From an uncultured Acidobacteriota bacterium (GTDB lineage: Bacteria; Acidobacteriota; Thermoanaerobaculia; Multivoradales; UBA5704), in contig OY969474.1 in NCBI GenBank assembly GCA_963700145.1, positions 2,432,001-2,496,000 on the forward strand: 64,000 nucleotides of DNA. The letters are read 5' to 3'. The position numbers were made by a program, and so were the translations under genes. Positions 110 to 12,937 of the stretch are shown one piece after another. The notes beneath the pieces were generated by a model. It was given only the letters and a program-made list of their open reading frames with translations. It ran no database searches and was not told where the DNA came from. How positions within the stretch are numbered: the first letter of the stretch is position 1; each line of letters starts with the position of its first letter.

Positions 110-709
110 CTACTCGCTTCGCCGGCGTGACTTGCCCTTTTCGCCTTCGAGCTCGATCCCGCGCTTGCCGAGGAGCTTCTTGAGGCGGGCGTAGATGTTC
201 TCGCCGAGGAGGGAGTTGGCGGTGGTGGTCAGGTCGCGCAGCACGGTGCGAAGCTCCTCGGAGCCGCTCCAGTGGCGGCGGGCGTAGGTCTCCAGCTCGC
301 CGCCGAAGGCCTGGGAGAGGACTGCCGCGGCGAGGACCAGGTCCTCCAGGTAGCCGGCGCCGCCGATCAGCGCTTCGGGCAGGAGGTCGGTCGGCAGGAC
401 GAAGTAGGCCAGGGCGCCGCCGATCAGGGCGCGCGTCGGGCCCGGGACGTTCTTGTCGAGGGCCAGCCGCACCAGCAGCATGAAGACGTCGGGGACGAGA
501 AGGAGCGCCTTGAGCGCCTTGCCCGAGAGCTTCCCGCCCTTGCTCTCGGCGGTCTGCACCACCCGGCCGCGCAGCCGGTCGTAGAAGGAGAGGAGGCCGG
601 TCGAGCGCAGCTCGCTTTCGAGCTCGGCGCCGCCGCGGACGAGCGCCGTCTCCGAGCGCTCCTCCGCCGCCGCGATCTCCACGTCAGGGTCCTTCGTCAC
701 GTTGGCCAT
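110..709 (-). CDS. DUF1232/YkvA family membrane protein
   Basis: Motif GALAYFVLPTDLLPE..IGGAGYLEDL typical of DUF1232; GGAGG RBS upstream. Confidence 0.8.
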   Translation of the reverse strand: MANVTKDPDVEIAAAEERSETALVRGGAELESELRSTGLLSFYDRLRGRVVQTAESKGGKLSGKALKALLLVPDVFMLLVRLALDKNVPGPTRALIGGALAYFVLPTDLLPEALIGGAGYLEDLVLAAAVLSQAFGGELETYARRHWSGSEELRTVLRDLTTTANSLLGENIYARLKKLLGKRGIELEGEKGKSRRRSE

Positions 710-751: not shown

Positions 752-1738
752 CTAGAAGATATACGCAATCGCGAACCCCACCTGCGCCGCCATCAACATC
801 AGGTACATGTGGCGCCAGGAGGGGTGGTTCTCGGTCGCGGTGAGCGAGGAAGGATCGCGCACCAGGAGCCAGACGGTGTAGCAGCCCCAGAGGGTCAAGA
901 GGACCCCCAGGGCGACCAGCAGCACCGGGTTGCCGGTCAGGATCGGCAGGCTCGGGTCCTTGGGGTCGCGCAGCCAGATGCCGAGCGGCACCAGCAGCCA
1001 GGGGAGGACGAAGAAGGGGCTCATGATCCAGGCCGCCTTCTTGACGCCGTGGATGATCGGCAGCGTGTGGCAGCCGCCGGCGCGGTCGCCCTCGATGTCG
1101 GCGAAGTCCTTGGTCGAGGCGGCGCCGAGCAGGAACAGGGCGAAGACCGCGCCGATGTACCAGGGCTCGGCGTACCAGACCGGCGCCACCATCCCCCAGC
1201 CCGCCACCTTGAGCAGCATGCCGCGCGGGATGGCGATCGTCCAGTTGGCGAGCATGCCGCGGGTCTTCGTCCGCCCGAGCTGCGGCGCCGAGTAGACGAA
1301 GGTGAAAAGGAGCCCCGCCAGGTAGATGAAGAAGCAGGCGCGCAGGCCGATCGGCGCCTGAAGCTTCTCGGCCAGCGTGTCGTAAGGGTAGGGCACGACC
1401 AGCCAGACCGGGATGAGCGCCAGGGCGTAGAAGACCCAGGTGAACCCCCACGCCTCGCGCAGCGTCAGCTCGCCGGTCACCAGCGGCCGCCCCGGCTTGT
1501 TGAGGCGGTCGATCTCCAGGTCGTAGACCTGGTTGATGGCGTTCGAGGCCGCGTTCATGAAGGCGGCGCAGAGCGAGCCCAGGGCCACGGTGCCGATGAC
1601 CGCCCAGGTGAGGCGACGCGCCGGATCGGGGTTGTGGGCCGAGCCGAAGGCGCAGATGGCCCCCGAGACGATGCCCAGGAGCGGCGGCAGCAGGGTGAAC
1701 GGGCGGGCGAGCCGGACGTAGAGGGGGAGCTTCTGCAT
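752..1738 (-). CDS. UbiA-family prenyltransferase
   Basis: Real start inside ORF 752..2806 (MQKLPLYVRLARPFTL; GTG at 1747 is an alternative). Asp-rich motifs NQVYDLEIDRLNKPGRPL and KDFADIEGD; multiple TM helices. Confidence 0.88.
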   Translation of the reverse strand: MQKLPLYVRLARPFTLLPPLLGIVSGAICAFGSAHNPDPARRLTWAVIGTVALGSLCAAFMNAASNAINQVYDLEIDRLNKPGRPLVTGELTLREAWGFTWVFYALALIPVWLVVPYPYDTLAEKLQAPIGLRACFFIYLAGLLFTFVYSAPQLGRTKTRGMLANWTIAIPRGMLLKVAGWGMVAPVWYAEPWYIGAVFALFLLGAASTKDFADIEGDRAGGCHTLPIIHGVKKAAWIMSPFFVLPWLLVPLGIWLRDPKDPSLPILTGNPVLLVALGVLLTLWGCYTVWLLVRDPSSLTATENHPSWRHMYLMLMAAQVGFAIAYIF

Positions 1739-1743
1739 CGCGC

Positions 1744-3105
1744 TCACCGTACCAGGGGCGCCAGCGCCATCGCGGCGAGCGCCCCGATCAGGGTGTTGAG
1801 GAAGTTGACCGCCTCGTTGTCGAGCCAGCCGCGCTTCTCGATCGTCGCGCCGACGACGCTCTCCAACGTCGAGCCCAGGAAGGCGGCGAGGACCACCGGC
1901 AGCACGCCGGCCCACGGGTAGAGCCCCACCGCCGCCCCGAGCGCCGCGACGACGAGCGACGCGGCGACGCCGGCGAGCGTGCCTTCGAGCGACACCGCCC
2001 CCTGCGTGCCGCGCGGCACCGGACGGAGGGTGGTGATCAGGAAGGTGCGGCGGCCGAGGAGCTGGCCGATCTCGGAGGAGGCGGTGTCGGCGGCGGCGGT
2101 GGCGAAGGCGCCGGCGAAGGCGAGGGCGAAGAGCGCCGGGTGCGGCGTCACCGCGGCGAAGAGGGCGCACGCCGCCGCGACGCCGCTGTTGGCCAAAGCG
2201 TGGCGCGCGCCGCGCCGCCCCCCCGCCTCCTGCGCCAGCTTCGCCGCCGCCTTCTTGCGGTAGCCGAGCTTGGTGGCGGCGCTGCCGAGGACGAAGAAGG
2301 CGACGAGGAGGAGGAACCCGCGCCAGTCGAGGAAGGCCCAGATCGCCGTCCCCAGGATCCAGCCGGCGACGACCCCCGAGACGTTCACCGTGCGCGCCGC
2401 GTAGGCGGCGGCGGCGAGGGCGGCGTTGACCGCGGCGCCGATCAGCAAACGCGCGCCGATACCGCTCGCCAGCCACCGCTCCCATCCCCCTTGCGTCAGC
2501 AGCAGACCGAAGAGGAAGAGCCCGGTCAGGAGCGGCACGCCCAGGTTGTCGTCCAGCCCCTGCGGCAGCGACTCCAGCCAGGCGGCGAAGAGCGCTGCCG
2601 TCGCCGCCACCGCCACCGCGAAGGGCCACTCGTAGCGGCCGGGCGCCGTCCAGAAGAGCAGCCCCGCCGCCGCCACCGTGCCGAAGAGGACGTACGCCGC
2701 GCTCCCGGCCCAGCTCTTCCGCGGGTTCCAGGGCAGCTTCCGCCGGCCGAGCGTCATGCCGACGACCGAGGCCATGCCATCGCCGAAGGCGAGGATCCCC
2801 CAGCACGCCGCCGCCACCTCCAGCCGCCGCCAGAAGAGCAGCACGAGGAGGAGCACGGCGAGCGGGTAGAGGACGATGCCGGCCGAGCCGCCGGCCGCGA
2901 GCTCGGCGTCGCGCCAGAGGCGCCGGCCGCCGACCCGCGGCAGCAGGTAGAGGTTCATCAAGAGGGCCGAGCCCGCCAGCACCGCCGACCAGAACGGCCC
3001 GAGCGGCCGCAGGGCGAGGGCGAAGAGCCCGGTCCCCATGTGGACGGTCTTGCGCAGCAGCTCGCGGCGCAGGAGCGCCGAGCCGGGGGCGGGCGCCGGC
3101 GTCAC
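1744..3105 (-). CDS. Phytol/dolichol kinase-like (CTP_transf_1) domain fused to DUF92 (phytyl-phosphate kinase-like) domain
   Basis: N-half: RKTVHM, GDGMASVVG..GRRKLPWNPRKSWAGS, DDNL. C-half DUF92 motifs: RRGARHALANSG, ADTASSEIG, GAVSLEGT, NEAVNFLNT. GTG start overlaps the upstream stop (GTGA). Confidence 0.82.
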   Translation of the reverse strand: MTPAPAPGSALLRRELLRKTVHMGTGLFALALRPLGPFWSAVLAGSALLMNLYLLPRVGGRRLWRDAELAAGGSAGIVLYPLAVLLLVLLFWRRLEVAAACWGILAFGDGMASVVGMTLGRRKLPWNPRKSWAGSAAYVLFGTVAAAGLLFWTAPGRYEWPFAVAVAATAALFAAWLESLPQGLDDNLGVPLLTGLFLFGLLLTQGGWERWLASGIGARLLIGAAVNAALAAAAYAARTVNVSGVVAGWILGTAIWAFLDWRGFLLLVAFFVLGSAATKLGYRKKAAAKLAQEAGGRRGARHALANSGVAAACALFAAVTPHPALFALAFAGAFATAAADTASSEIGQLLGRRTFLITTLRPVPRGTQGAVSLEGTLAGVAASLVVAALGAAVGLYPWAGVLPVVLAAFLGSTLESVVGATIEKRGWLDNEAVNFLNTLIGALAAMALAPLVR

Positions 3106-4106
3106 CGCTTCCACTGCCCGGTCTCCTCGAGCCAGCGGAAGGTGGCGGCGAGCCCCTCGTCGAGACCGCGGGCGCGCCAGCCGAGGTCGGCCGCGGCGCG
3201 CGCCGAGTCGTAGGCCCAGTCGTGGCGGTAGACCTCGACCAGGTCGGGGGTGAGCTTCGGCGTGCCGCCCGTCAGCCGCGCCCATCCCTTCTGCGCCGCG
3301 CCCAGCGCCTTCGCCAGCCCGTCCGGCATGCGGCGGCGCGGCACCGGCACGCCGGAGAGCCGCTCGACCGCGCCGTAGAACTCACCGAGCGTCACGTTCG
3401 GCCCGCCGAGGACGTAGCGGCTGCCGGGCGCCGCCCGCTCCAGGACCGCCGCCACGCCGCGCGCCACGTCCTCGACGTAGGCGTAGCTCCAGCGCCGCTC
3501 GGCCGACCCGACGAGCGCCGGCAGGCGCTTGTGGAGGAGGTCGAGCAGGTGGCGCACCACGATGTTGCCCTCGGTCATCTCGCCGGGGCCGTAGATCACG
3601 CCCGGGTAGACGACCGCGACCGGCGCCCCCTCGGCGATGGCGCGGCGGGCCAATCGGTCGGCCAGGGTCTTGGTCTCCTCGTAGGGGTTGATCCAGGGGC
3701 GGTCGGCGGCGGTGTCGGCCGCCTCGTCGAGGACGCCGCCCGGCGCCCGCTCGGAGGGGCCGAGGGCGATGAAGCTCGAGACGTAGACGACCTTCCCGAC
3801 GCCCGCCGCCCGCGCCGCCGCCAGCACGTTCTCGAGCCCGCCGACGTTGACGCGCTCGAACTCGGCGCGCGGCGCCAGGATCTTGACCAGCGCCGCGGCG
3901 TGGACGACGGCCTCGCACCCCGCGGCCGCCCGCGCCAGGCTGTCGCGGTCGGTGACGTCGCCGGCGGCGAGCTCGACGCCTCCGGGGAAGGGCGCGCGGG
4001 CCCCGGCGCGTGGCCGCACCAGCAGCCGCAGGGCGTGGCGCGGCGCCAGCTCCTCGACCAGGCGGCGGCCGAGGAACCCGGTGCCGCCGGTGACGAGGAC
4101 CCTCAC
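3102..4106 (-). CDS. Extended SDR, NAD-dependent epimerase/dehydratase (farnesol dehydrogenase/HpnA-like)
   Basis: TGGTGFLG, YEETK (YxxxK), VYPGVIYGPGEMTEGN. Confidence 0.8.
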   Translation of the reverse strand: MRVLVTGGTGFLGRRLVEELAPRHALRLLVRPRAGARAPFPGGVELAAGDVTDRDSLARAAAGCEAVVHAAALVKILAPRAEFERVNVGGLENVLAAARAAGVGKVVYVSSFIALGPSERAPGGVLDEAADTAADRPWINPYEETKTLADRLARRAIAEGAPVAVVYPGVIYGPGEMTEGNIVVRHLLDLLHKRLPALVGSAERRWSYAYVEDVARGVAAVLERAAPGSRYVLGGPNVTLGEFYGAVERLSGVPVPRRRMPDGLAKALGAAQKGWARLTGGTPKLTPDLVEVYRHDWAYDSARAAADLGWRARGLDEGLAATFRWLEETGQWKR

Positions 4107-4124: not shown

Positions 4125-5399
4125 CTACCGCGTGACGCGCACCTGCAGGTTGGAGAACTTCCAGCCGACCGGCGGGAAGTAGGCGCCGTCGGCCACACCG
4201 GCGAGCCCGAAGTTGAGCTTCACCGGATTGCCGTTGCGCTCGGCGAGGTCGAGGTTGAAGGCGGCGCTGGTGACGTCGGCGATCACCGCGTCGTTGCGGG
4301 AGACCACCATGCGCAGCGTCGCGGTCTGGGTGTCGTAGACGATCTTGACGTGGTGGACCGCTCCCTCCTGCCAGCCGGTGCCGAACTTGATCGCCGGCTC
4401 GACGACCGCGCTCCCCTGGTCGACCAGGGTGCGCGAGCGCATGCCGCGCACGAAGCTGCCGAAGTAGAGGGTCTTGTTGAAGCGCTGGCCGCCGGTGTGG
4501 AACATGCCGACGAGGCCGGTGAAGTGGGTGGTGAACTTGCTGATCCGCACGTCGAAGTCGATGGTGGCGGCGCGGTAGGCGCGGTCCGGCACCAGCGGCA
4601 GGGTGAAGGTCATCTGCGAGTTGGCCGGGGTCGGCGCGAAGAACTGCTTCGGCCGGTCGATCGAGACGGTCTCCACCACCGGCTGCGGCGGCGCGTCGAG
4701 CGGGTAGAGCAGGCGGAAGGCGCGGGCGTTGTCGCCGACGAAAGTGCCGTAGGCGTAGAACGGCTGGTTGCACGAGACCTCGGCGCGCAGCCCGCCGGCG
4801 GCGGGGAGCGAGAGCAGCCTTGCGAACGGATCGTCCATCACCCGGTGCGAGAGCGGCAGCACCTTCACCTTGTCCACCGGGCCGAGCGGCGAGCCCTTGG
4901 GGCGGAGGAGCTTGACGTTGCAGGTGGCGTTGGCCTCGGCGAAGTTGAGGATCTCGAGGTTCGAGTGCCCGGCGGGATCGCGCGCCAGCCCCTGGATGTG
5001 GGCCGTCTCGCCGGCCTTGAACCAGTTGTCCTCGGCGAGCACCGGCAGCGCCCAGGTCATCGTGTCGTCCCCCTGCGGCAGGAAGAGGACGCCGGTGTTG
5101 ACCTGCATCCCTGCCCCCTGCACCTTGAGCATCCCGGCGCCGCGGATGAACCCGGAGACATCGAAGACGTTCGGCTTCTCGTCGTTGTCGACGTCGACGT
5201 CGAAGCCGGTGGCGCGGGAGCCGTCGATCCCGGTGTCGATGAAGATGGGGGCGAGGCGGCGGGGCCCGCCCCGGCTCACCTCCAGCTTCCACTCGGCGCG
5301 GCGCAGGCCGTCGAGGTCCGGGTTGGGGATGTAGTACGTGCCCGCGGCGGCGGGGAGCGCCAGGGCGGCCAGGGCGAGTGTGAGCGCGAGCTGCTTCAT
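4125..5399 (-). CDS. Secreted hypothetical protein, beta-rich
   Basis: Signal peptide MKQLALTLALAALALPAAA; normal codon bias; AGGAG RBS; TACAAT upstream. Confidence 0.7.
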   Translation of the reverse strand: MKQLALTLALAALALPAAAGTYYIPNPDLDGLRRAEWKLEVSRGGPRRLAPIFIDTGIDGSRATGFDVDVDNDEKPNVFDVSGFIRGAGMLKVQGAGMQVNTGVLFLPQGDDTMTWALPVLAEDNWFKAGETAHIQGLARDPAGHSNLEILNFAEANATCNVKLLRPKGSPLGPVDKVKVLPLSHRVMDDPFARLLSLPAAGGLRAEVSCNQPFYAYGTFVGDNARAFRLLYPLDAPPQPVVETVSIDRPKQFFAPTPANSQMTFTLPLVPDRAYRAATIDFDVRISKFTTHFTGLVGMFHTGGQRFNKTLYFGSFVRGMRSRTLVDQGSAVVEPAIKFGTGWQEGAVHHVKIVYDTQTATLRMVVSRNDAVIADVTSAAFNLDLAERNGNPVKLNFGLAGVADGAYFPPVGWKFSNLQVRVTR

Positions 5400-5467
5400 G
5401 ACGGCTGCCTTCTCCTACGAAATGGCGTCGGGGACGCGAGGAAGTCGGGGGATTGTACCAGAGCCGC

Positions 5468-6367
5468 TCAGCCGCGGGCCTGGACCGCGGCCCAGAGGTC
5501 GGCGAGGGCGTCGTCGAGGGTGCGCTGCGGCGCCCAGCCGAGGGCGCGCAGGCGGGAGGCGTCGCCACGGAGGAGGGGCAGGTCGACGGGGCGGACGCGG
5601 GCGGGGTCCTCCTCGACGCGGGCCTCCACGCCGGCGACAGCCAGCAGGCGCGCGAGCGCTTCGGCGATCGAGGGAGCGCAGCCCGAGGCCACGTTGTAGA
5701 CCCCGCCCGGCTCCCCGCGCTCTACGAGCAGGGCCAGCGCCTCGGCGCCGTCGGCGACGTGGACGAAGTCGCGCCGGGGCGTCAGGTTCCCCACCCGCAG
5801 CACCGGCTCCTGCTCGCCGCGAGCGATGGCGCGGAGCTGGGTGGCGAAGGCGGGCAGGGCGAAGCTCGGCGCCTGCCCGGGCCCGACGAGGTTGAAGCAG
5901 CGGGCGACCACCGCGCCGGCTGCCAGGGCGAGCCGCTCGGCCGCCACCTTGGTCAGAGCGTAGGGGGTGAGCGGATCGGGCGGCCGCTCCTCCCCGATCG
6001 GCTGCTCCGCCTCGGGCACCGCGCCGTAGACCTCGGCGCTCGAGGCCACGACCGTCCGGCGGCCGGCGGCGGCCTCCAGCAGGTTGGCGGTGCCGCCGAC
6101 GTTGATCTCGACGTACTGCGGCATGCGGTGCCAGGAGTCCCCGACGTGGGAAAGGCCGGCCAGGTGGACGACGACCTCGGGGTCGGCCTGCCGCACCACC
6201 TCGCCGAGCCGCGGCAGATCGCGCAGGTCGGCCTCGTAGCACTCGACCCCTGGCAGGTCCGGCCGGCCGTCCACCCAGGTGCCGGCGACCTCGTGGCCGC
6301 GGGCGGCGAGGGCACGGGCGAGGACCGGCCCGAGGAAGCCGCCGACGCCGGTGACCAGGACGCGCAA
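5468..6367 (-). CDS. rmd: GDP-6-deoxy-D-mannose reductase / NDP-sugar epimerase (Rmd-like)
   Basis: TGVGGFLG, HLAGLSHVGDSW, YALTK, VGNLTPRRDFVHVAD; directly downstream of gmd. Confidence 0.7.
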   Translation of the reverse strand: MRVLVTGVGGFLGPVLARALAARGHEVAGTWVDGRPDLPGVECYEADLRDLPRLGEVVRQADPEVVVHLAGLSHVGDSWHRMPQYVEINVGGTANLLEAAAGRRTVVASSAEVYGAVPEAEQPIGEERPPDPLTPYALTKVAAERLALAAGAVVARCFNLVGPGQAPSFALPAFATQLRAIARGEQEPVLRVGNLTPRRDFVHVADGAEALALLVERGEPGGVYNVASGCAPSIAEALARLLAVAGVEARVEEDPARVRPVDLPLLRGDASRLRALGWAPQRTLDDALADLWAAVQARG

Positions 6368-6382
6368 GCGCTTCGCGGTCCG

Positions 6383-7378
6383 CTAGACGGCTGCCACTTC
6401 GGCGGGGCGGCGGCGGCGCGCCAGGGTCTCGCGCCAGTAGTCGAGGAGGTCGGCGACCGTCTGCTCGAAGGGGATGCGCGGCTCCCAGCCGGTGTCGGCG
6501 CGGAACTTCGAGCTGTCGCCGATCAGGATCTCGACGTCGGAGGGGCGGAGGCGCTCGGGGTCGACCTCGACGTCCACCTTCACCTTCGCCAGGCCGACGA
6601 TCATCTGCAGCAGCTCGCGGATCGAGATGCCGCGGCCGCTGGCGATGTTGTAGACCTCCCCCGGCCGGCCGCGCTCGACCGCCAGCCAGTAGGCCCGCAC
6701 CATGTCGCGCACGTCGGTGAAGTCGCGGACGGCGTCGAGGTTGCCGACCCGGATCACCGGCCCCTGCATGCCGTGCTCGATGGCCGCTACCTGGCGGCAG
6801 AAGTTGGAGGTGACGAAGGGGTGGCCGCGCCGCGGCCCGGTGTGGTTGAAGCCGCGGGTGCGGATGACCTTCAGGCCGTAGCTCTGGAAGTACTGGTAGC
6901 CGAGGAGGTCCTGCGCCACCTTGGAGACGGCGTAGGGCGACAGCGGCCGCAGCGGGTTGTCCTCGGTGATCGGCACCTCGTGCGGGAGCACCAGGCCGTA
7001 CTGCTCGGAGGAGCAGGCGATCTGCACCACCGGGTCGAGGCGCAGGGCGCGGATCGCCTCGAAGAGGTTGACCTGGCCCTGGACGTTGGTGGTGAGGGTC
7101 TCGTTGGGGGCCGTCCAGCTCGACGGCACGAAGCTCTGCGCCGCCAGGTGAAAGATCGCATCGGGACGCGAGCGCTCCAGCGCCTGTTGGATCGAGCTGT
7201 AGTCGCGCAGGTCGGCCTCGAGGAGCTGCACGGCGCCGCCGTCGATGTGGTCGAGGTTCTCCATGCGGCTGCGCCAGCGGTGGGTGCCGAAGACCTCCAC
7301 CTCGGGGTGCTCCTGGAGAAGGAACTCCGCCAGGTGGGAGCCCGCGAAGCCGGTGATGCCGGTGATCAGGACGCGCAT
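6383..7378 (-). CDS. gmd: GDP-mannose 4,6-dehydratase
   Basis: TGITGFAGSHL, HLAAQSFV, SPYAVSK, FNHTGPRR, GNLDAVRDFTDVRD. Confidence 0.8.
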   Translation of the reverse strand: MRVLITGITGFAGSHLAEFLLQEHPEVEVFGTHRWRSRMENLDHIDGGAVQLLEADLRDYSSIQQALERSRPDAIFHLAAQSFVPSSWTAPNETLTTNVQGQVNLFEAIRALRLDPVVQIACSSEQYGLVLPHEVPITEDNPLRPLSPYAVSKVAQDLLGYQYFQSYGLKVIRTRGFNHTGPRRGHPFVTSNFCRQVAAIEHGMQGPVIRVGNLDAVRDFTDVRDMVRAYWLAVERGRPGEVYNIASGRGISIRELLQMIVGLAKVKVDVEVDPERLRPSDVEILIGDSSKFRADTGWEPRIPFEQTVADLLDYWRETLARRRRPAEVAAV

Positions 7379-7394
7379 ACGGAAGTCTCCTTCT

Positions 7395-8249
7395 TCATCC
7401 TCTGCCCCGCCGGAGGGCCGTCAGGTACTCCACCAGTCCCCACCCCCAGGGCTCGACCCGCCGGCGGAGCGCCCGCTCGCAGCGGCTGACGTCGAGCACC
7501 GAGTAGGCGGGGCGCGGCGCGGGGCGGGGGACCTGCGCGGTCGGGACCGGGACCACCTCGACGTCGCTGGCCCAGAGGCGGGCGATCTCGTCGGCGAAAG
7601 CGTACCAGGAGACCGGCTCCCGGTTGCGGTAGTGGACGACGCCGTCGAGCGCCAGGGGCGCCAGGTCGAGGACCGCCCGCGCCAGGAACGGCGTGTAGGT
7701 CGGGCAGCCGACCTGGTCGTCCACGACCTCCAGGCGCCGCGTGCCCTCCGTGATCTTGCGCACGATCGTCGCCGCGAAGTTGGGCCCGCCGGGGCCGAAG
7801 AGCCAGCTCGTGCGCACGACGAGCGCCCGCGGCGCCGCGAGCGCCGCCTCCTCCCCGGCGAGCTTGCTGCGGCCGTAGACCGAGAGCGGCGCGGTGGCCG
7901 CCTCCTCGGCGTAGGGCGCGGCGGCGCGCCCGTCGAAGACGTAGTCGGTCGAGAGCTGGATCAACCGCGCGCCGGCCTGCCGCGCGGCGTCGGCGACGTG
8001 CGCCACGGCGCGGCCGTTGACCTCGGCGGCGCGCTCGGGCTCGCTCTCGCAGGCGTCCACCTTGGTGAAGGCGGCGCAGTTGACGACCAGCTCGGGGCGG
8101 AAGGTCTCGGCCCAGTAGAGGAGGCGGTCGCGGTCGCGCACGTCGGCCTGCCCGCGCGGCAGGGCGAGGGCGGCGAAGTTGCGCGCCCGCGCCTCCGCGA
8201 CGAGCGCCCGGCCGAGCATGCCGGCGCCGCCGAAGATCAGCGTGCGCAT
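7395..8249 (-). CDS. rfbD: dTDP-4-dehydrorhamnose reductase
   Basis: GGAGMLG, NCAAFTKVDACE, STDYVFDG, YGRSK, VVDDQVGCPT. Confidence 0.93.
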   Translation of the reverse strand: MRTLIFGGAGMLGRALVAEARARNFAALALPRGQADVRDRDRLLYWAETFRPELVVNCAAFTKVDACESEPERAAEVNGRAVAHVADAARQAGARLIQLSTDYVFDGRAAAPYAEEAATAPLSVYGRSKLAGEEAALAAPRALVVRTSWLFGPGGPNFAATIVRKITEGTRRLEVVDDQVGCPTYTPFLARAVLDLAPLALDGVVHYRNREPVSWYAFADEIARLWASDVEVVPVPTAQVPRPAPRPAYSVLDVSRCERALRRRVEPWGWGLVEYLTALRRGRG

Positions 8250-8259
8250 GAGCTGGACT

Positions 8260-8364
8260 TGTCATCCCGAGCGTGAGCGAGGGATCTGGGGGCAGGGTGG
8301 CGCGACACCGCCACGCCCTCGCGCCGCCCCCCGCCCAGATCCCTCGCTATCGCTCGGGATGACA
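8260..8364. repeat. REP-like inverted pair (GTCATCCCGAGCG..GCGAGGGATCT family)
   Basis: tgtcatcccgagcgtgagcgagggatctggggg ... ccagatccctcgctatcgctcgggatgaca; intergenic. Confidence 0.85.
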
Positions 8365-8370
8365 TCGGCG

Positions 8371-9438
8371 TCAAGTGATCCCCACCTCGGAGTTGTCCCC
8401 CAGCATGAAGCGGTAGGCCTTGGGCTTGTAGTCGGTCTTGACGATGCGGACGTTGCGGCCGACGAGCGACCCGTCGATGCGCAGGGGGATGTCGCGGATC
8501 TCGCAGTCGGAGAGGACGATCGAGTTCTCGATCTCGCAGCGCACCAGGGTGCAGCGCTCGCCGATCGAGGTGTAGGGGCCGACGAAGGCGTGCTCGAGGC
8601 GGGTGCCGTCGCCGATCACCACCGGCCCGCGGATCAGCGAGTCCACGATCTCCACCCCCTCGCCGAGCTGCACCCGCCCTTCGATCTGGCTGCCCTTCCC
8701 CACCTCCCCGCCGCGCCGCACCTCCAGGGTCTCCAGCACGATGCGGTTGGCCTCCAGCATGTCCTCGAGCTTGCCGGTGTCCTTCCACCAGCCGCGCACG
8801 ACGTGCGGGTGGACGTCGAGGCCGCGCTCGATCAGGTCCTGGATGGCGTCGGTGATCTCCAGCTCGCCGCGCGCCGAGGGCTTGATCCGGTTGACCGACT
8901 CGAAGATGTGCGGGTCGAACATGTAGACGCCGACCAGCGCCAGGTCGCTCTTGGGCTCCTTGGGCTTTTCGACCAGCCGCCGCACCTTCCCCTCGGGGGT
9001 CAGCTCGGCCACCCCGAACTGCTCCGGGTTGTTGACGTGGGCGAGCAGGATCTCGGCGTTGCAGCCGAGGGTGCGGAACTCCTCGACCAGGCCGGTGATG
9101 CCGCCGGCGATCAGGTTGTCGCCGAGGTACATGACGAAGGGGTCGTCGCCCAGGAACGGCTCGGCGATCTTGACCGCGTGGGCGAGGCCGCGCGGCGCGT
9201 CCTGCTCGATGTAGCGGACGCGGGCGCCGAAGCGCCCGCCGTCGCCGACCGCGGCGCGGATCTCCTCCTTGGTCTCCCCCACCACGATGCCGATCTCCTC
9301 GATCCCCGCCGCCACGATCGACTCGATGGCGTAGAAAAGGACCGGCTTGTTGGCGACCGGCACGAGCTGCTTGGCCGAGGTGTAGGTGAGCGGCCGCAGC
9401 CGCGTCCCCTTGCCGCCGGAGAGGATGAGCCCCTTCAT
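8371..9438 (-). CDS. rfbA: Glucose-1-phosphate thymidylyltransferase (long form)
   Basis: Start MKGLILSGGKGTRLRPLTYTSAKQLVPVANKP inside ORF 8371..11919; WWKDTGK; C-terminal hexapeptide repeats. Confidence 0.92.
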   Translation of the reverse strand: MKGLILSGGKGTRLRPLTYTSAKQLVPVANKPVLFYAIESIVAAGIEEIGIVVGETKEEIRAAVGDGGRFGARVRYIEQDAPRGLAHAVKIAEPFLGDDPFVMYLGDNLIAGGITGLVEEFRTLGCNAEILLAHVNNPEQFGVAELTPEGKVRRLVEKPKEPKSDLALVGVYMFDPHIFESVNRIKPSARGELEITDAIQDLIERGLDVHPHVVRGWWKDTGKLEDMLEANRIVLETLEVRRGGEVGKGSQIEGRVQLGEGVEIVDSLIRGPVVIGDGTRLEHAFVGPYTSIGERCTLVRCEIENSIVLSDCEIRDIPLRIDGSLVGRNVRIVKTDYKPKAYRFMLGDNSEVGIT

Positions 9439-9440
9439 CG

Positions 9441-11699
9441 CTACTGCTCCGAGGGGACGGAGCTGCGCCCGGTGAGGTCCAGGAAGGTGCCGACGTTCTT
9501 GAGCGTCACCGAGAAGCGGTACTCGCGGTTGCGCAGCGCCTGGGCCTGGAAGCTCAGCAGCTCGAGGCGGAAGCCGTAGCACTGCGACATCCAGTTGACG
9601 ACGTAGCGCTGCTGCTGGATCTTGGCCTCGTCGAGGTCGTAGGAGAGGCGGCCCTCGACGCGCAGCCGGTTGGGGCGCAGGCCGAGGGCGCCGAAGAGCT
9701 GCACCTGGGTGCCCAGCTCGCCCGGCTCCCCGGCCTGCGGCCGGCGGTAGAGGGTGAGCCCGAGGTTGTTGGCCACTCCCCAGCCGTAGCCGCCGGAGAG
9801 CGAGCTCGAGGCCAGGCGCGCGTCGAGGGTGTTGTAGGTGACGCGCGACTCGAAGCTCGTCTTGTCGCTGGGGTTGATGCGGACCAGGGCCTCCAGCGGC
9901 CCGGCGGTGTCGTTCTCGAGGCCGTCGATCGAGGTCTGGAGCGGCTGCTGGTCGTCGAACGAGAGGTCGCGCGCCACCTCGAAGAGGAAGACCTCGCGCG
10001 CCGCTCCCTTGCTGTCCTCGGGCTTGGCCAGGATGCGGTTGACCAGGGCGACGCGGGCGCGGTTGGTCGAGAAGGCCGTGTCCACCTCGTCGAAGCGCGG
10101 CACCAGCGCCTGGTCCTCGACCTCGCCGCTGTAGACGTAGCCGATGCGCGGCGCCACGACGTGCTTGAAGCGGGCGAAGGCGCCGAGCTTGCGCTCGTAG
10201 ATGCGCGACAGCGACGGCCCCACCAGCTCGGCGCGGCCGAAAGGGAAGCTGCGGGTGAAGGTCTCGCCGGTGAAGGTGCCGTCGACCGGCGACAGGCTGT
10301 CGCCGTACCAGGTGTAGCGGCCGCCGCCGGTGAGGTTGAGCGACAGCCACGGCAGGGTCGAGACCGGCAGCGACAGCTCCGGCCCGACGTCGACGCGGCC
10401 GTAGGTCGCGTCGAGGGTGCGCTGGTTGTCGAGGTCGAGGTAGTCGGCCGACCCGCGGAAGCCGACGTAGAAGGGCGTCTTCCACAGCCGCGTCGAGCGC
10501 AGCCGGTACTCCACCTCCGGGAGCTTCCGCTGCACCACCGTCACCCCCGGCACGTCGAGGGTCTGGATCTCGTTGAGCAGGACGTTGAGCAGGTGGGCGC
10601 CGCGGTTCCGGCTGACGAAGGCGCGGCTGGCGACGCGGCGGGTGGTGTTGCGGTCGATGTCGCGCTCGAAGTCGCGGAAGAACTCGAAGTCGGAGAAGTC
10701 CTCGTAGGCGATGACGCCGCGCATCCCCCACGGCAGGTCGTTGGTGACGTGGTCGAGGTTGACCTTCCAGCGCCACTCGTCGCGGTCGGGGTCCTGGACG
10801 GCGTAGCCGACGAAGCTGCCGCGCGTCCCCTCGCTCGGCTGGTAGCGCAGCTCGTTGCCGAGGCCGAAGTAGCCGCGGCTGTAGCTGTCGATGTGGAAGG
10901 TCGTGTCGTAGCTCCGCCCCAGGGTCTGGAAGTAGGCCAGCGAGAGCGAAGCGCCGCGGCGCTCGGAGTAGCCGATGTTGGGGATCAGCAAACCCGAGCT
11001 GCGCTCGCTCTTGGCCGGCCAGAGGAGGTAGGGGGTGTAGAACACCGGCACCTTCTTGACCCGCATCGCCGCGCTGCGCACCCGCGCGTAGCCCTCCATC
11101 TCGACCGTCGCCTGGCCGAGCCGGAAGCTCCAGTCCGGGTTTTCGCCGCTGCAGGAGGTGAAGATGCCGTCGGTGACGGTGTAGACGTCCTCGGCGACCT
11201 TCGCCACCTCGGCGCCGCTGAAGTAGTACTCGGAGGCGACGTGGGCGGTGGCCTCGGTGAGCTTGCCGGTCTTGGTGTCGAGGTCGAAGGTGGCGGTCTC
11301 GCCGGTCAGCCGCCGCGGCCCCTGGTCGACGATGACGTTGCCGGTGGCGGTCACGACCTTGGTCTCGAGATCGAGCTCGGCGCGGTCGGCCGAGAGCTCC
11401 ATGTCCTGGTACTTGATCTTCACCGCCCCGGAGAGGACGGCGTAGTCCTTGGTCTTGTATTCGAGGTCCGCGGCGCTGCCGGAGGCGCTGCCGCCGCCCT
11501 GGTCCTCCGGGAACTTCAGGTCGAACTCGATGCGGTCGGCGGCCGCGGCGGGGACCGCGGGCTGGGCGGGCTGGGTCGAGGCCGGCGGCACGGCCGGCTC
11601 GCCGGTCGTCTCCGGCTCCCCGCTGAGCTCCGGCTTCTGCGGGTCCTGGGCGGCGAGGGGAGAGGCGAGGAACAGTCCCAGCAGCAACAGCCTTGTCAT
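9441..11699 (-). CDS. lptD: LPS-assembly protein LptD
   Basis: Signal peptide, OstA-like N-domain, FTSC..PDW, PVFYTPY, RSSGLLIP, beta-barrel with QCY near the C-terminus. Alternative GTG start at 11756. Confidence 0.85.
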   Translation of the reverse strand: MTRLLLLGLFLASPLAAQDPQKPELSGEPETTGEPAVPPASTQPAQPAVPAAAADRIEFDLKFPEDQGGGSASGSAADLEYKTKDYAVLSGAVKIKYQDMELSADRAELDLETKVVTATGNVIVDQGPRRLTGETATFDLDTKTGKLTEATAHVASEYYFSGAEVAKVAEDVYTVTDGIFTSCSGENPDWSFRLGQATVEMEGYARVRSAAMRVKKVPVFYTPYLLWPAKSERSSGLLIPNIGYSERRGASLSLAYFQTLGRSYDTTFHIDSYSRGYFGLGNELRYQPSEGTRGSFVGYAVQDPDRDEWRWKVNLDHVTNDLPWGMRGVIAYEDFSDFEFFRDFERDIDRNTTRRVASRAFVSRNRGAHLLNVLLNEIQTLDVPGVTVVQRKLPEVEYRLRSTRLWKTPFYVGFRGSADYLDLDNQRTLDATYGRVDVGPELSLPVSTLPWLSLNLTGGGRYTWYGDSLSPVDGTFTGETFTRSFPFGRAELVGPSLSRIYERKLGAFARFKHVVAPRIGYVYSGEVEDQALVPRFDEVDTAFSTNRARVALVNRILAKPEDSKGAAREVFLFEVARDLSFDDQQPLQTSIDGLENDTAGPLEALVRINPSDKTSFESRVTYNTLDARLASSSLSGGYGWGVANNLGLTLYRRPQAGEPGELGTQVQLFGALGLRPNRLRVEGRLSYDLDEAKIQQQRYVVNWMSQCYGFRLELLSFQAQALRNREYRFSVTLKNVGTFLDLTGRSSVPSEQ

Positions 11700-11729
11700 T
11701 CCGAGCGCAGCGAGGAATCTGGGGGCAGG
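11694..11729. repeat. Single REP-like copy overlapping the lptD start
   Basis: tgtcattccgagcgcagcgaggaatctgggggcagg, same family as 8260 and 13261. Confidence 0.7.
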
Positions 11730-11752
11730 CTGCCTGACAGCGACCATCTGCC

Positions 11753-12937
11753 TCACGCGTCGAGCCTCTCAACCACCATCGCCGTCGCCTCGCCGCCGCC
11801 GATGCAGATCGCGGCGCAGCCGGTCCTGGCGCCGCGCTCGCGCAGGGCGTGGAGGAGGGTGACCAGGATGCGCGCCCCCGAGCTGCCGATGGGGTGGCCG
11901 AGGGCGACCGCCCCGCCACGGACGTTGACCCGCGCGGGGTCGAGCCCGAGGTCGCGGATGAAGGCCAGCGCCACGACCGCGAAGGCCTCGTTGACCTCCC
12001 AGAGGTCGATGTCGGCCGCCTTCATGCCGGCCCGCTCGAGGACCACCTTGACCGCCCCGGCCGGCGCGGTGGTGAACCACTCCGGCTTCTGGGCCAGCGA
12101 GGCGTGGGCGACGATGCGCGCCAGCGGCTTCTTCCCCAGCGCCGCGGCGTGGGCGGCGGTGGTCAGCACCAGGGCGGCGGCGCCGTCGTTGATCTTGCTG
12201 GCGTTGCCGGCGGTGACGGTGCCGTCCTTCTGGAAGGCGGGGCGGAGGCCGCCGATTCGCGACAGGTCCGCCTTGAAGGGCTCCTCGTCGCGATCGACCG
12301 GGGTGCCCTCCCCCTTCTTGCCGGGAACGGTCACCGGCACGATCTCCTCGGCCGAGAGCCCGCGCTCGGTGGCCTCGCGGGCGCGGCGGTAGCTCTCGAG
12401 GGCGAAGGCGTCCTGCTCCTCGCGCGAGACGGCGTACTCGCGCACGCAGAGCTCGGCGCAGTTGCCCATGTGGAGGTCGTTGTAGGGGTCCCAGAGGCCG
12501 TCGTGGATGACGGAGTCGATGAGCTTGCCGTGCCCGAGCCGCAGGCCCTCGCGCGCCCCGGGGGCGAGGTAGGGGGCCTGGCTCATGCTCTCCATGCCGC
12601 CGGCGGCGACGATCCGGAAGTCGCCGCAGCGCAGGTCGTTGGCGGCGATCATGACGGCGCGCATCGCCGAGCCGCAGACTTTGTTGAGGGTGACGGCCCC
12701 GGTCGCGGGCGGGCAGCCGGCGCCGAGGGCGGCCTGGCGGGCGGGGGCTTGGCCCTGGCCGGCGGTGAGGACGCAGCCCATGTTGACTTGCTGGATGTCC
12801 GCGGGGGTCAAGCCGGCGCGCTCGATGGCAGCGGCGAGAGCGCGGGCGCCCAGGACGTGCGCGGGGAGGGCCGCGAGCGTCCCCTGAAAAGCGCCGATCG
12901 GGGTACGCACGGCGCTCAGGATGACGACGTCGTCCAA
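11753..12937 (-). CDS. Acetyl-CoA C-acetyltransferase (thiolase)
   Basis: TTG start after GAGGA; NKVCGS, NEAF, GHPIGSSG, CIGGG. Confidence 0.93.
   Translation of the reverse strand: MDDVVILSAVRTPIGAFQGTLAALPAHVLGARALAAAIERAGLTPADIQQVNMGCVLTAGQGQAPARQAALGAGCPPATGAVTLNKVCGSAMRAVMIAANDLRCGDFRIVAAGGMESMSQAPYLAPGAREGLRLGHGKLIDSVIHDGLWDPYNDLHMGNCAELCVREYAVSREEQDAFALESYRRAREATERGLSAEEIVPVTVPGKKGEGTPVDRDEEPFKADLSRIGGLRPAFQKDGTVTAGNASKINDGAAALVLTTAAHAAALGKKPLARIVAHASLAQKPEWFTTAPAGAVKVVLERAGMKAADIDLWEVNEAFAVVALAFIRDLGLDPARVNVRGGAVALGHPIGSSGARILVTLLHALRERGARTGCAAICIGGGEATAMVVERLDA

Follow-up and report, generated by a model that had tools for sequence, protein, structure and literature searches.

The window analysed here is a 64,000-nucleotide stretch of contig OY969474.1 from an uncultured Acidobacteriota bacterium, whose single-contig genome is 95% complete. 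Near its start, within limits already given in an earlier note on this DNA (752..4106), lie three minus-strand genes read in the order short-chain dehydrogenase/reductase (SDR), fused double kinase and UbiA-superfamily prenyltransferase. The SDR gene (3102..4106, 334 residues) and the fusion gene (1744..3105, 453 residues with two kinase-type domains) share a GTGA overlap at 3102-3105, and a second GTGA overlap at 1744-1747 joins the fusion gene to the UbiA gene (752..1747, 331 residues), for which an alternative ATG start lies three codons downstream at 1738. Coordinates, junctions and domains confirm the translationally coupled trio described in the earlier note. The operon, called the module where its counterparts elsewhere are meant, is real, conserved and coherent, and is built from parts of known kinds.

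Domains and catalytic-type residues of the three proteins

The first gene encodes an extended SDR (PF01370, 115 bits) that carries the cofactor and catalytic motifs expected of a farnesol dehydrogenase (FLDH), namely TGGTGFLG, S110 and Y142xxxK146; G7, G10, G13, R31, S110, Y142 and K146 are invariant in 18 module-adjacent SDRs. We predict a farnesol-dehydrogenase-like aldehyde reductase. The protein is 40% identical to one protein labelled farnesol dehydrogenase, and among 120 listed homologs of the Omnitrophota SDR that label is carried by 28 (JGI) and sugar epimerase by 15. Its first Atlas hit, at 0.99, is a mostly Streptophyta cluster that ties with bacterial ones; among solved structures the closest to it is 3wj7 (E 3e-38), presumably an aldehyde reductase. 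The best NCBIfam model is HpnA (TIGR03466), at 202 bits under the cut-off of 367.65, and squalene-hopene cyclase had no match in the genome, with a model (TIGR01507) that reached its cut-off in none of 14 controls. The concern raised in the earlier note, that the SDR might prove to be an HpnA of a hopanoid locus, has therefore not materialised, and hopanoid synthesis was rejected as a role because no squalene-hopene cyclase was found.

The fusion protein (model confidence, pLDDT, 93.4) combines two predicted kinases. Its C-terminal domain (1780..2430) belongs to the DUF92/VTE6 family, COG1836, with PF01940 at 212.7 bits against a cut-off of 27.5 and TIGR00297 at 218.8 against 205.85, and is a predicted alkyl-phosphate kinase; D340, T341, E345, G347, S372, G375 and N434 are invariant in 34 homologs. 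The N-terminal domain (2509..3075, about residues 11-199) had no Pfam or NCBIfam match. Residues 11-199 are 31% identical (E 1e-19) to the plant protein P0210, whose record carries no name and which we take from its motifs to be VTE5/FOLK. The domain also aligns, one wrong-strand row being disregarded, with proteins named phytol kinase and shares the aspartate motifs of COG0170, and R18, H22, G108, D109, E178, D186 and N187 are invariant in 34 homologs. For its stand-alone counterpart in Omnitrophota (L059), automatic labels read phytol kinase in 19 of 87 homolog rows and dolichol kinase in 3. A VTE5/FOLK/Sec59-like alcohol kinase is the likely identity. Sequence searches of the fusion against solved structures gave nothing useful. 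Fusions of such a kinase to COG1836 are reportedly mentioned for bacteria by vom Dorp in 2015 and Seaver in 2014. The architecture is not novel, since two-domain proteins of Sec59-like and arCOG02245 (COG1836, DUF92) type, for example Methanosarcina barkeri Mbar_A3310, are described for archaea as predicted isoprenoid kinases by Makarova and colleagues (PMC5898192); the gene context named in that paper is uppS, whereas in our operon an SDR and an unnamed UbiA flank the fusion gene.

For the third protein, PF01040 (111.9 bits, above its cut-off), two invariant aspartate-rich motifs (N72-Q73-D76-D80 and K213-D214-D217-G220-D221) and the fold (pLDDT 95.5) place it in the UbiA superfamily. The domain assignments of the earlier note for all three genes are thus supported by Pfam and NCBIfam models together with the P0210 alignment. 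The UbiA protein scores under the cut-off of all 23 NCBIfam subfamily models listed; against two chlorophyll synthase models it reaches 92 of 313 and 70.8 of 212.3 bits, which speaks against membership of ChlG/BchG, against digeranylgeranylglyceryl phosphate (DGGGP) synthase 73.3 of 296, and against homogentisate prenyltransferase (HPT) 53.1 of 226. Profile scores are tied between DGGGP synthase (91.5 bits) and chlorophyll synthase (9sau, 90.4 bits), and among the fold matches shown, which did not include 9sau, the best is DGGGP synthase 6m31 (Z 26.9, root mean square deviation (rmsd) 3.8, 277 aligned). Two trees were made, one of 67 rows and one of 31 of those rows, neither with HPT or BchK. 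In these the protein falls in a clade (Shimodaira-Hasegawa (SH)-like support 97, SH approximate likelihood ratio test (SH-aLRT) 97) of Acidobacteriota, Omnitrophota, Thermoplasmata and fusion proteins. The clade is sister to three ChlG sequences (89, 92), not inside them, and separate from another clade, to which haloarchaeal DGGGP synthase and further Thermoplasmata UbiAs belong. This position is a new result. We found no paper on the operon or on the UbiA clade, although the supplements of PMC5898192 and PMC5133447 may list the clade or its context.

Five other UbiA genes in the genome were classified as a heme O synthase, an MqnP-like protein, a DPPR-synthase-like protein (L074) and two unassigned members. 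As heme O and menaquinone synthesis have UbiA genes of their own, neither role was retained for the operon enzyme. The dedicated UbiA postulated in the earlier note is supported. Geranylgeranylglyceryl phosphate (GGGP) synthase (PcrB, PF01884) had no match in the genome, and an archaeal-type ether lipid made via GGGP was rejected on that ground. Tocopherol synthesis was likewise rejected, as tocopherol cyclase (PF14249) had no match, with a model whose cut-off no control reached. A search for type I reaction centres, type II centres not being covered, also gave no match.

Conservation of the module and two further partners

Counting that of the window itself, 19 of the 20 best loci keep the three-gene order, and the twentieth ends at a contig break; the arrangement is therefore not due to chance. 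Within the order, 36 of 41 genomes, again counting this one, have a match to the fusion protein. Across the phylum we used an evenly drawn sample of 251 Acidobacteriota genomes, of which 82 have a UbiA ortholog and 113 a DUF92 match; 110 strong DUF92 matches were kept for counting and three weak ones dropped. All but one of the 82 UbiA carriers have DUF92, and the two genes lie at most 2 kb apart in 58 of these 81 genomes, on the same strand in 54. Co-occurrence in other genomes, whose absence the earlier note had named as grounds for giving up its proposal, is thus seen at the level of both loci and genomes. Because Omnitrophota L059 has four separate genes in the order kinase, SDR, DUF92 and UbiA, and because DUF92 and UbiA are joined in single proteins (P0411 and P0497), the link outlasts re-arrangement. 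Among the genomes counted, G062 is unpublished. It contributes one each to the counts 82, 81 and 58 and to two below (75 and 39), as well as a single row in the alignment of fusion proteins; none of our claims depends on this genome alone.

The SDR is tied to the module as an accessory member. We built an ortholog profile from the 18 module-adjacent SDRs, some of which are themselves among the counted sequences, and scored eight candidates per genome; a gap between 299 and 280 bits parts module SDRs from look-alikes. Orthologs above the gap occur in 49 of the 251 genomes, 47 of these being UbiA carriers, and stand directly upstream of the fusion gene in 42. The operon can accordingly not be called complete, as it was in the earlier note: no SDR was found among the eight candidates in 35 of the 82 carriers, and two partners not linked to the operon track the UbiA gene. 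A second SDR of this genome (C1:3002505-3003476), 41% identical to that of the operon, scores 280 bits and so falls below the gap.

Fusion proteins and co-inheritance identify these partners, newly described here, as an AlkP/NPP enzyme and a desaturase. Scanning 16 long proteins among the best 150 UbiA-family representatives (clusters at 50% identity, all scoring at least 199 bits), we found UbiA fused to a PF01663 AlkP/NPP domain in three clusters (P0362, P0447 and P0482) and to a PF00487 desaturase domain in two (P0350 and P0470); the desaturase parts of the last two are 46% identical. The AlkP/NPP family occurs in 81 of the 82 UbiA carriers, as a single copy in 75, and in L059, L114 and L115 its gene stands close upstream of the module. 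One fused NPP groups with module-adjacent NPPs at 97. The proteins have an N-terminal hydrophobic stretch and, in four of five examined, further membrane segments. In this genome the gene occupies C1:2328063-2330207, some 102 kb ahead of the window, and comes two genes after an ispA-like gene on the same strand. A stand-alone di-iron desaturase/hydroxylase is present in 39 of the 82 carriers and in none of the 169 other genomes (E <= 1e-35); it matched no named family, and, its own opposite-strand frame aside, no gene recurs beside it in more than four of 20 loci. SDR and desaturase are not alternatives to each other, as both occur in 15 carriers, only the SDR in 32, only the desaturase in 24 and neither in 11. 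A metagenome scan for distant contexts found nothing.

A proposed lipid pathway and its alternatives

We propose that the operon is the recharging and attachment arm of a membrane-lipid pathway in which the alcohol comes from turnover of the pathway's own product, a reading drawn from sequence that we hold to be about evenly balanced between right and wrong. The SDR would reduce a prenyl aldehyde to the alcohol, the fusion protein would phosphorylate the alcohol twice, probably with cytidine triphosphate (CTP), and the UbiA enzyme would move the chain from the resulting diphosphate to an acceptor; homology agrees with the order from aldehyde through alcohol, phosphate and diphosphate to transfer predicted in the earlier note. 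Kinship with chlorophyll synthase and DGGGP synthase makes an oxygen acceptor probable, hence an ester or ether link. The membrane-anchored AlkP/NPP enzyme, probably facing the periplasm, may process the lipid and release the alcohol, and the di-iron enzyme would, in some carriers, introduce a double bond or a hydroxyl group into it.

The free alcohol most likely stems from the cell itself. This genome yielded neither DXR nor IspG but has a mevalonate cluster (C1:1618976-1626509, L128) with a prenyl synthase, IDI-2, HMG-CoA reductase, mevalonate kinase, a decarboxylase, isopentenyl phosphate kinase and a squalene-synthase-like gene. IspG is present in 231 of the 251 phylum genomes, including most carriers, and in G033 the UbiA gene directly follows an IspA-like synthase gene. 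Together these suggest that the donor can be made de novo, and with mevalonate genes in the genome the kinases are more likely to reuse alcohol that the cell's lipid has released than to collect plant prenols; a module replacing missing isoprenoid synthesis was rejected on the same evidence. Prenylcysteine lyase, sought as a source of aldehyde, had no match here, nor in any control. The module also lies downstream of lptD in several classes and many lineages (lptD stands immediately upstream of the SDR in L112, L113 and L120 and close upstream in L119), and this, with the probable de novo donor, leads us to infer a housekeeping envelope-lipid pathway whose kinases recycle alcohol freed by turnover.

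The same set of enzymes would also suit scavenging of prenyl aldehydes and alcohols such as farnesol, geranylgeraniol and phytol from the environment, as the earlier note had it. Plant VTE5/FOLK accept C15-C20 prenols (PMC13415981), and many carriers, going by their records, come from soil or sediment. We nevertheless consider this source unlikely, since nothing points to uptake: carriers have de novo isoprenoid genes, no conserved transporter or catabolic gene stands beside the module in the loci examined, lptD adjoins it across classes, and UbiA is coupled to the IspA-like gene in G033. A de novo route with a non-isoprenoid chain, in which the SDR or another reductase gives a fatty alcohol, the fusion protein an alkyl diphosphate and UbiA an alkyl ether or ester lipid, would account for a fatty-acid-desaturase-family enzyme that occurs only alongside this UbiA, in some proteins as a fusion, and for weak matches of the SDR to thioester-reductase models. 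Three more HMG-CoA-reductase-like genes in the genome also fit, as a class related to HMG-CoA reductase reduces acyl-CoA to fatty alcohol (PMC11948995, available in part), and stearol-bearing bacteriochlorophyll c offers a precedent for a fatty-alcohol version (PMC9066304, likewise). This route is in our view quite improbable: the desaturase was not found in this genome, and the closest labels of SDR and kinase homologs are those of prenyl enzymes. UbiA chemistry normally requires an allylic donor.

We give little credence to the idea that the fusion protein, like a dolichol kinase, maintains a polyprenyl-phosphate sugar carrier for the adjoining nucleotide-sugar genes, with UbiA acting on the carrier or separately. 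The Sec59-like N-domain, the sugar-nucleotide genes and lptD upstream, the placing of DPPR synthase in the UbiA superfamily and, in the available part of PMC5898192, archaeal DUF92 genes beside uppS all fit it. Such a carrier needs one phosphate and not two kinase domains, however; the DPPR-synthase-type UbiA is a different gene here, and the gene order of the module is retained in loci without the sugar genes (L113, L114, L115 and L120).

Several observations weigh against the proposed recharging pathway. UbiA and DUF92 are not adjacent in 23 of the 81 genomes (some perhaps through contig breaks), a strong DUF92 match occurs without this UbiA in 29 genomes, and in four Thermoplasmata genomes the UbiA ortholog stands apart from the DUF92 gene. 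The co-occurrence counts carry no statistical test and come from related, non-independent genomes, and so overstate the linkage. With UbiA and the fusion gene unlinked in those 23 genomes and no SDR found in 35 carriers, the genes could be envelope housekeeping neighbours that share no single pathway; given the single DUF92-UbiA proteins, the 81 of 82 co-occurrence and the same four parts re-ordered in another phylum, we regard this as very improbable indeed. As for the partners, 73 of the 169 non-carriers also have members of the wider AlkP/NPP family (one copy in 6, two or more in 67, none in 96), mostly as a separate tandem clade; in the nine such genomes examined a tandem pair lies in a different gene cluster and forms its own clade. 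Two of the three fused NPPs are long branches, and the module-linked, single-copy NPPs are not resolved as one supported clade. The likeness to plant FLDH (At4g33360) and VTE6 was drawn without direct comparison to the plant sequences, and the fold matches of the whole fusion model, to CarS (5guf, Z 6.5, rmsd 3.5, 114 aligned) and CdsA (4q2e, Z 5.8, rmsd 3.0, 127 aligned), are within noise. Finally, the UbiA clade was placed without HPT, and we take the NQxxDxxxD motif to be HPT-like, so that the enzyme may instead prenylate a carbon of an aromatic ring.

Among known systems, plant prenol salvage is close in its steps. According to the available parts of PMC13415981, plant FLDH, VTE5/FOLK and VTE6 act in sequence on C15/C20 prenyl aldehyde, alcohol and phosphate, and VTE5 and VTE6 recharge the phytol that chlorophyll gives up. 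Here the three enzyme kinds and their predicted order are the same, and the UbiA comes from a branch adjoining chlorophyll synthase, but a single bacterial operon holds them, both kinases are fused, and AlkP/NPP and desaturase partners are added. Plant salvage feeds chlorophyll synthase and tocopherol, whereas our host has no match to a type I reaction centre or tocopherol cyclase and no ChlG among its classified UbiA genes. Of the chlorophyll-type transferases (ChlG, BchG and BchK), ChlG is the nearest named clade in both trees; unlike ChlG and BchG, the operon UbiA has NQ for ND in its first motif. Archaeal DGGGP synthase resembles it in fold and profile score but forms a separate clade. The ebo operon (EboC UbiA and EboF PF01663 hydrolase; PMC5133447) also pairs a UbiA with a PF01663 enzyme, but the operon UbiA scores 24 bits against a cut-off of 250 for the EboC model, and the available ebo passages mention no kinases or DUF92.

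Two kinase domains on one polypeptide could find use in converting cheap alcohols to diphosphates. With 82 of the 251 phylum genomes carrying it, the UbiA clade is large, and it has no named function. The two partners point the search towards a membrane lipid whose pathway includes a phosphoester step and an optional oxidation, a lipid that would matter for biomarkers of soil Acidobacteriota. Going further, we tentatively suggest, and think it rather doubtful, that a third of the Acidobacteriota sampled, together with Omnitrophota, Planctomycetota and certain archaea, produce an undiscovered class of membrane lipid via this sister family of chlorophyll synthase. On that view the pathway would have up to six parts, namely a reductase, two kinases, a transferase, a periplasm-facing AlkP enzyme and an optional di-iron tailoring enzyme. 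It would be the counterpart, outside photosynthesis, of the plant phytol cycle and possibly the origin of that cycle, and abundant soil bacteria may have in it a new way of making alkyl lipids with ether or ester links.

Neighbouring genes and further observations

Upstream of the operon on the minus strand (4125..11756) lie envelope genes that we do not place in the pathway: lptD, an rmlA-like gene, rmlD, two GDP-mannose-dehydratase-like SDRs and, between the sugar genes and the operon SDR, a 424-residue protein (4125-5399) whose N-terminus looks signal-like and which matched neither Pfam nor NCBIfam. Downstream, 42 bases away, is a minus-strand DUF1232 gene (110..709; PF06803, 44.7 bits), a lineage-restricted neighbour present in 11 of 49 loci.

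Elsewhere in the genome, the AlkP/NPP gene belongs to one run (C1:2328063-2338864, L129) with a second membrane PF01663 protein, the ispA-like gene, an anti-sigma pair, an Rce1-like protease and BlaR1/BlaI. The three extra HMG-CoA-reductase-like genes lie at C1:4976023-4982227 and 5434611-5435717, two of them beside acyl-carrier/ketosynthase-type genes. No hopene cyclase was found to go with the squalene-synthase-like gene of the mevalonate cluster. Near-duplicate blocks in opposite orientation (C1:7040-15194 and 1369007-1377228) hold purH-like, LolA-like and polyprenyl synthase genes and reflect a duplication or an assembly artefact.

In other genomes, the fusion gene of G023 (C3:2229091-2230424) is in two overlapping pieces, probably through a frameshift or sequencing error. 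In Thermoplasmata L063, L064 and L066 the UbiA ortholog stands directly upstream of a nickel-insertion (LarC-like) gene, in genomes with 7 to 14 UbiA-family genes. The non-carrier loci L177-L185 (e.g. L181:8425-14221) have a tandem AlkP/NPP pair with a membrane protein of 265-290 residues in all nine and, in five, a gene that we take from its motif to be sulfotransferase-like. We do not claim this pair, of a separate clade and a different cluster, as a replacement of the module; the two arrangements are nearly exclusive of each other in the sample.

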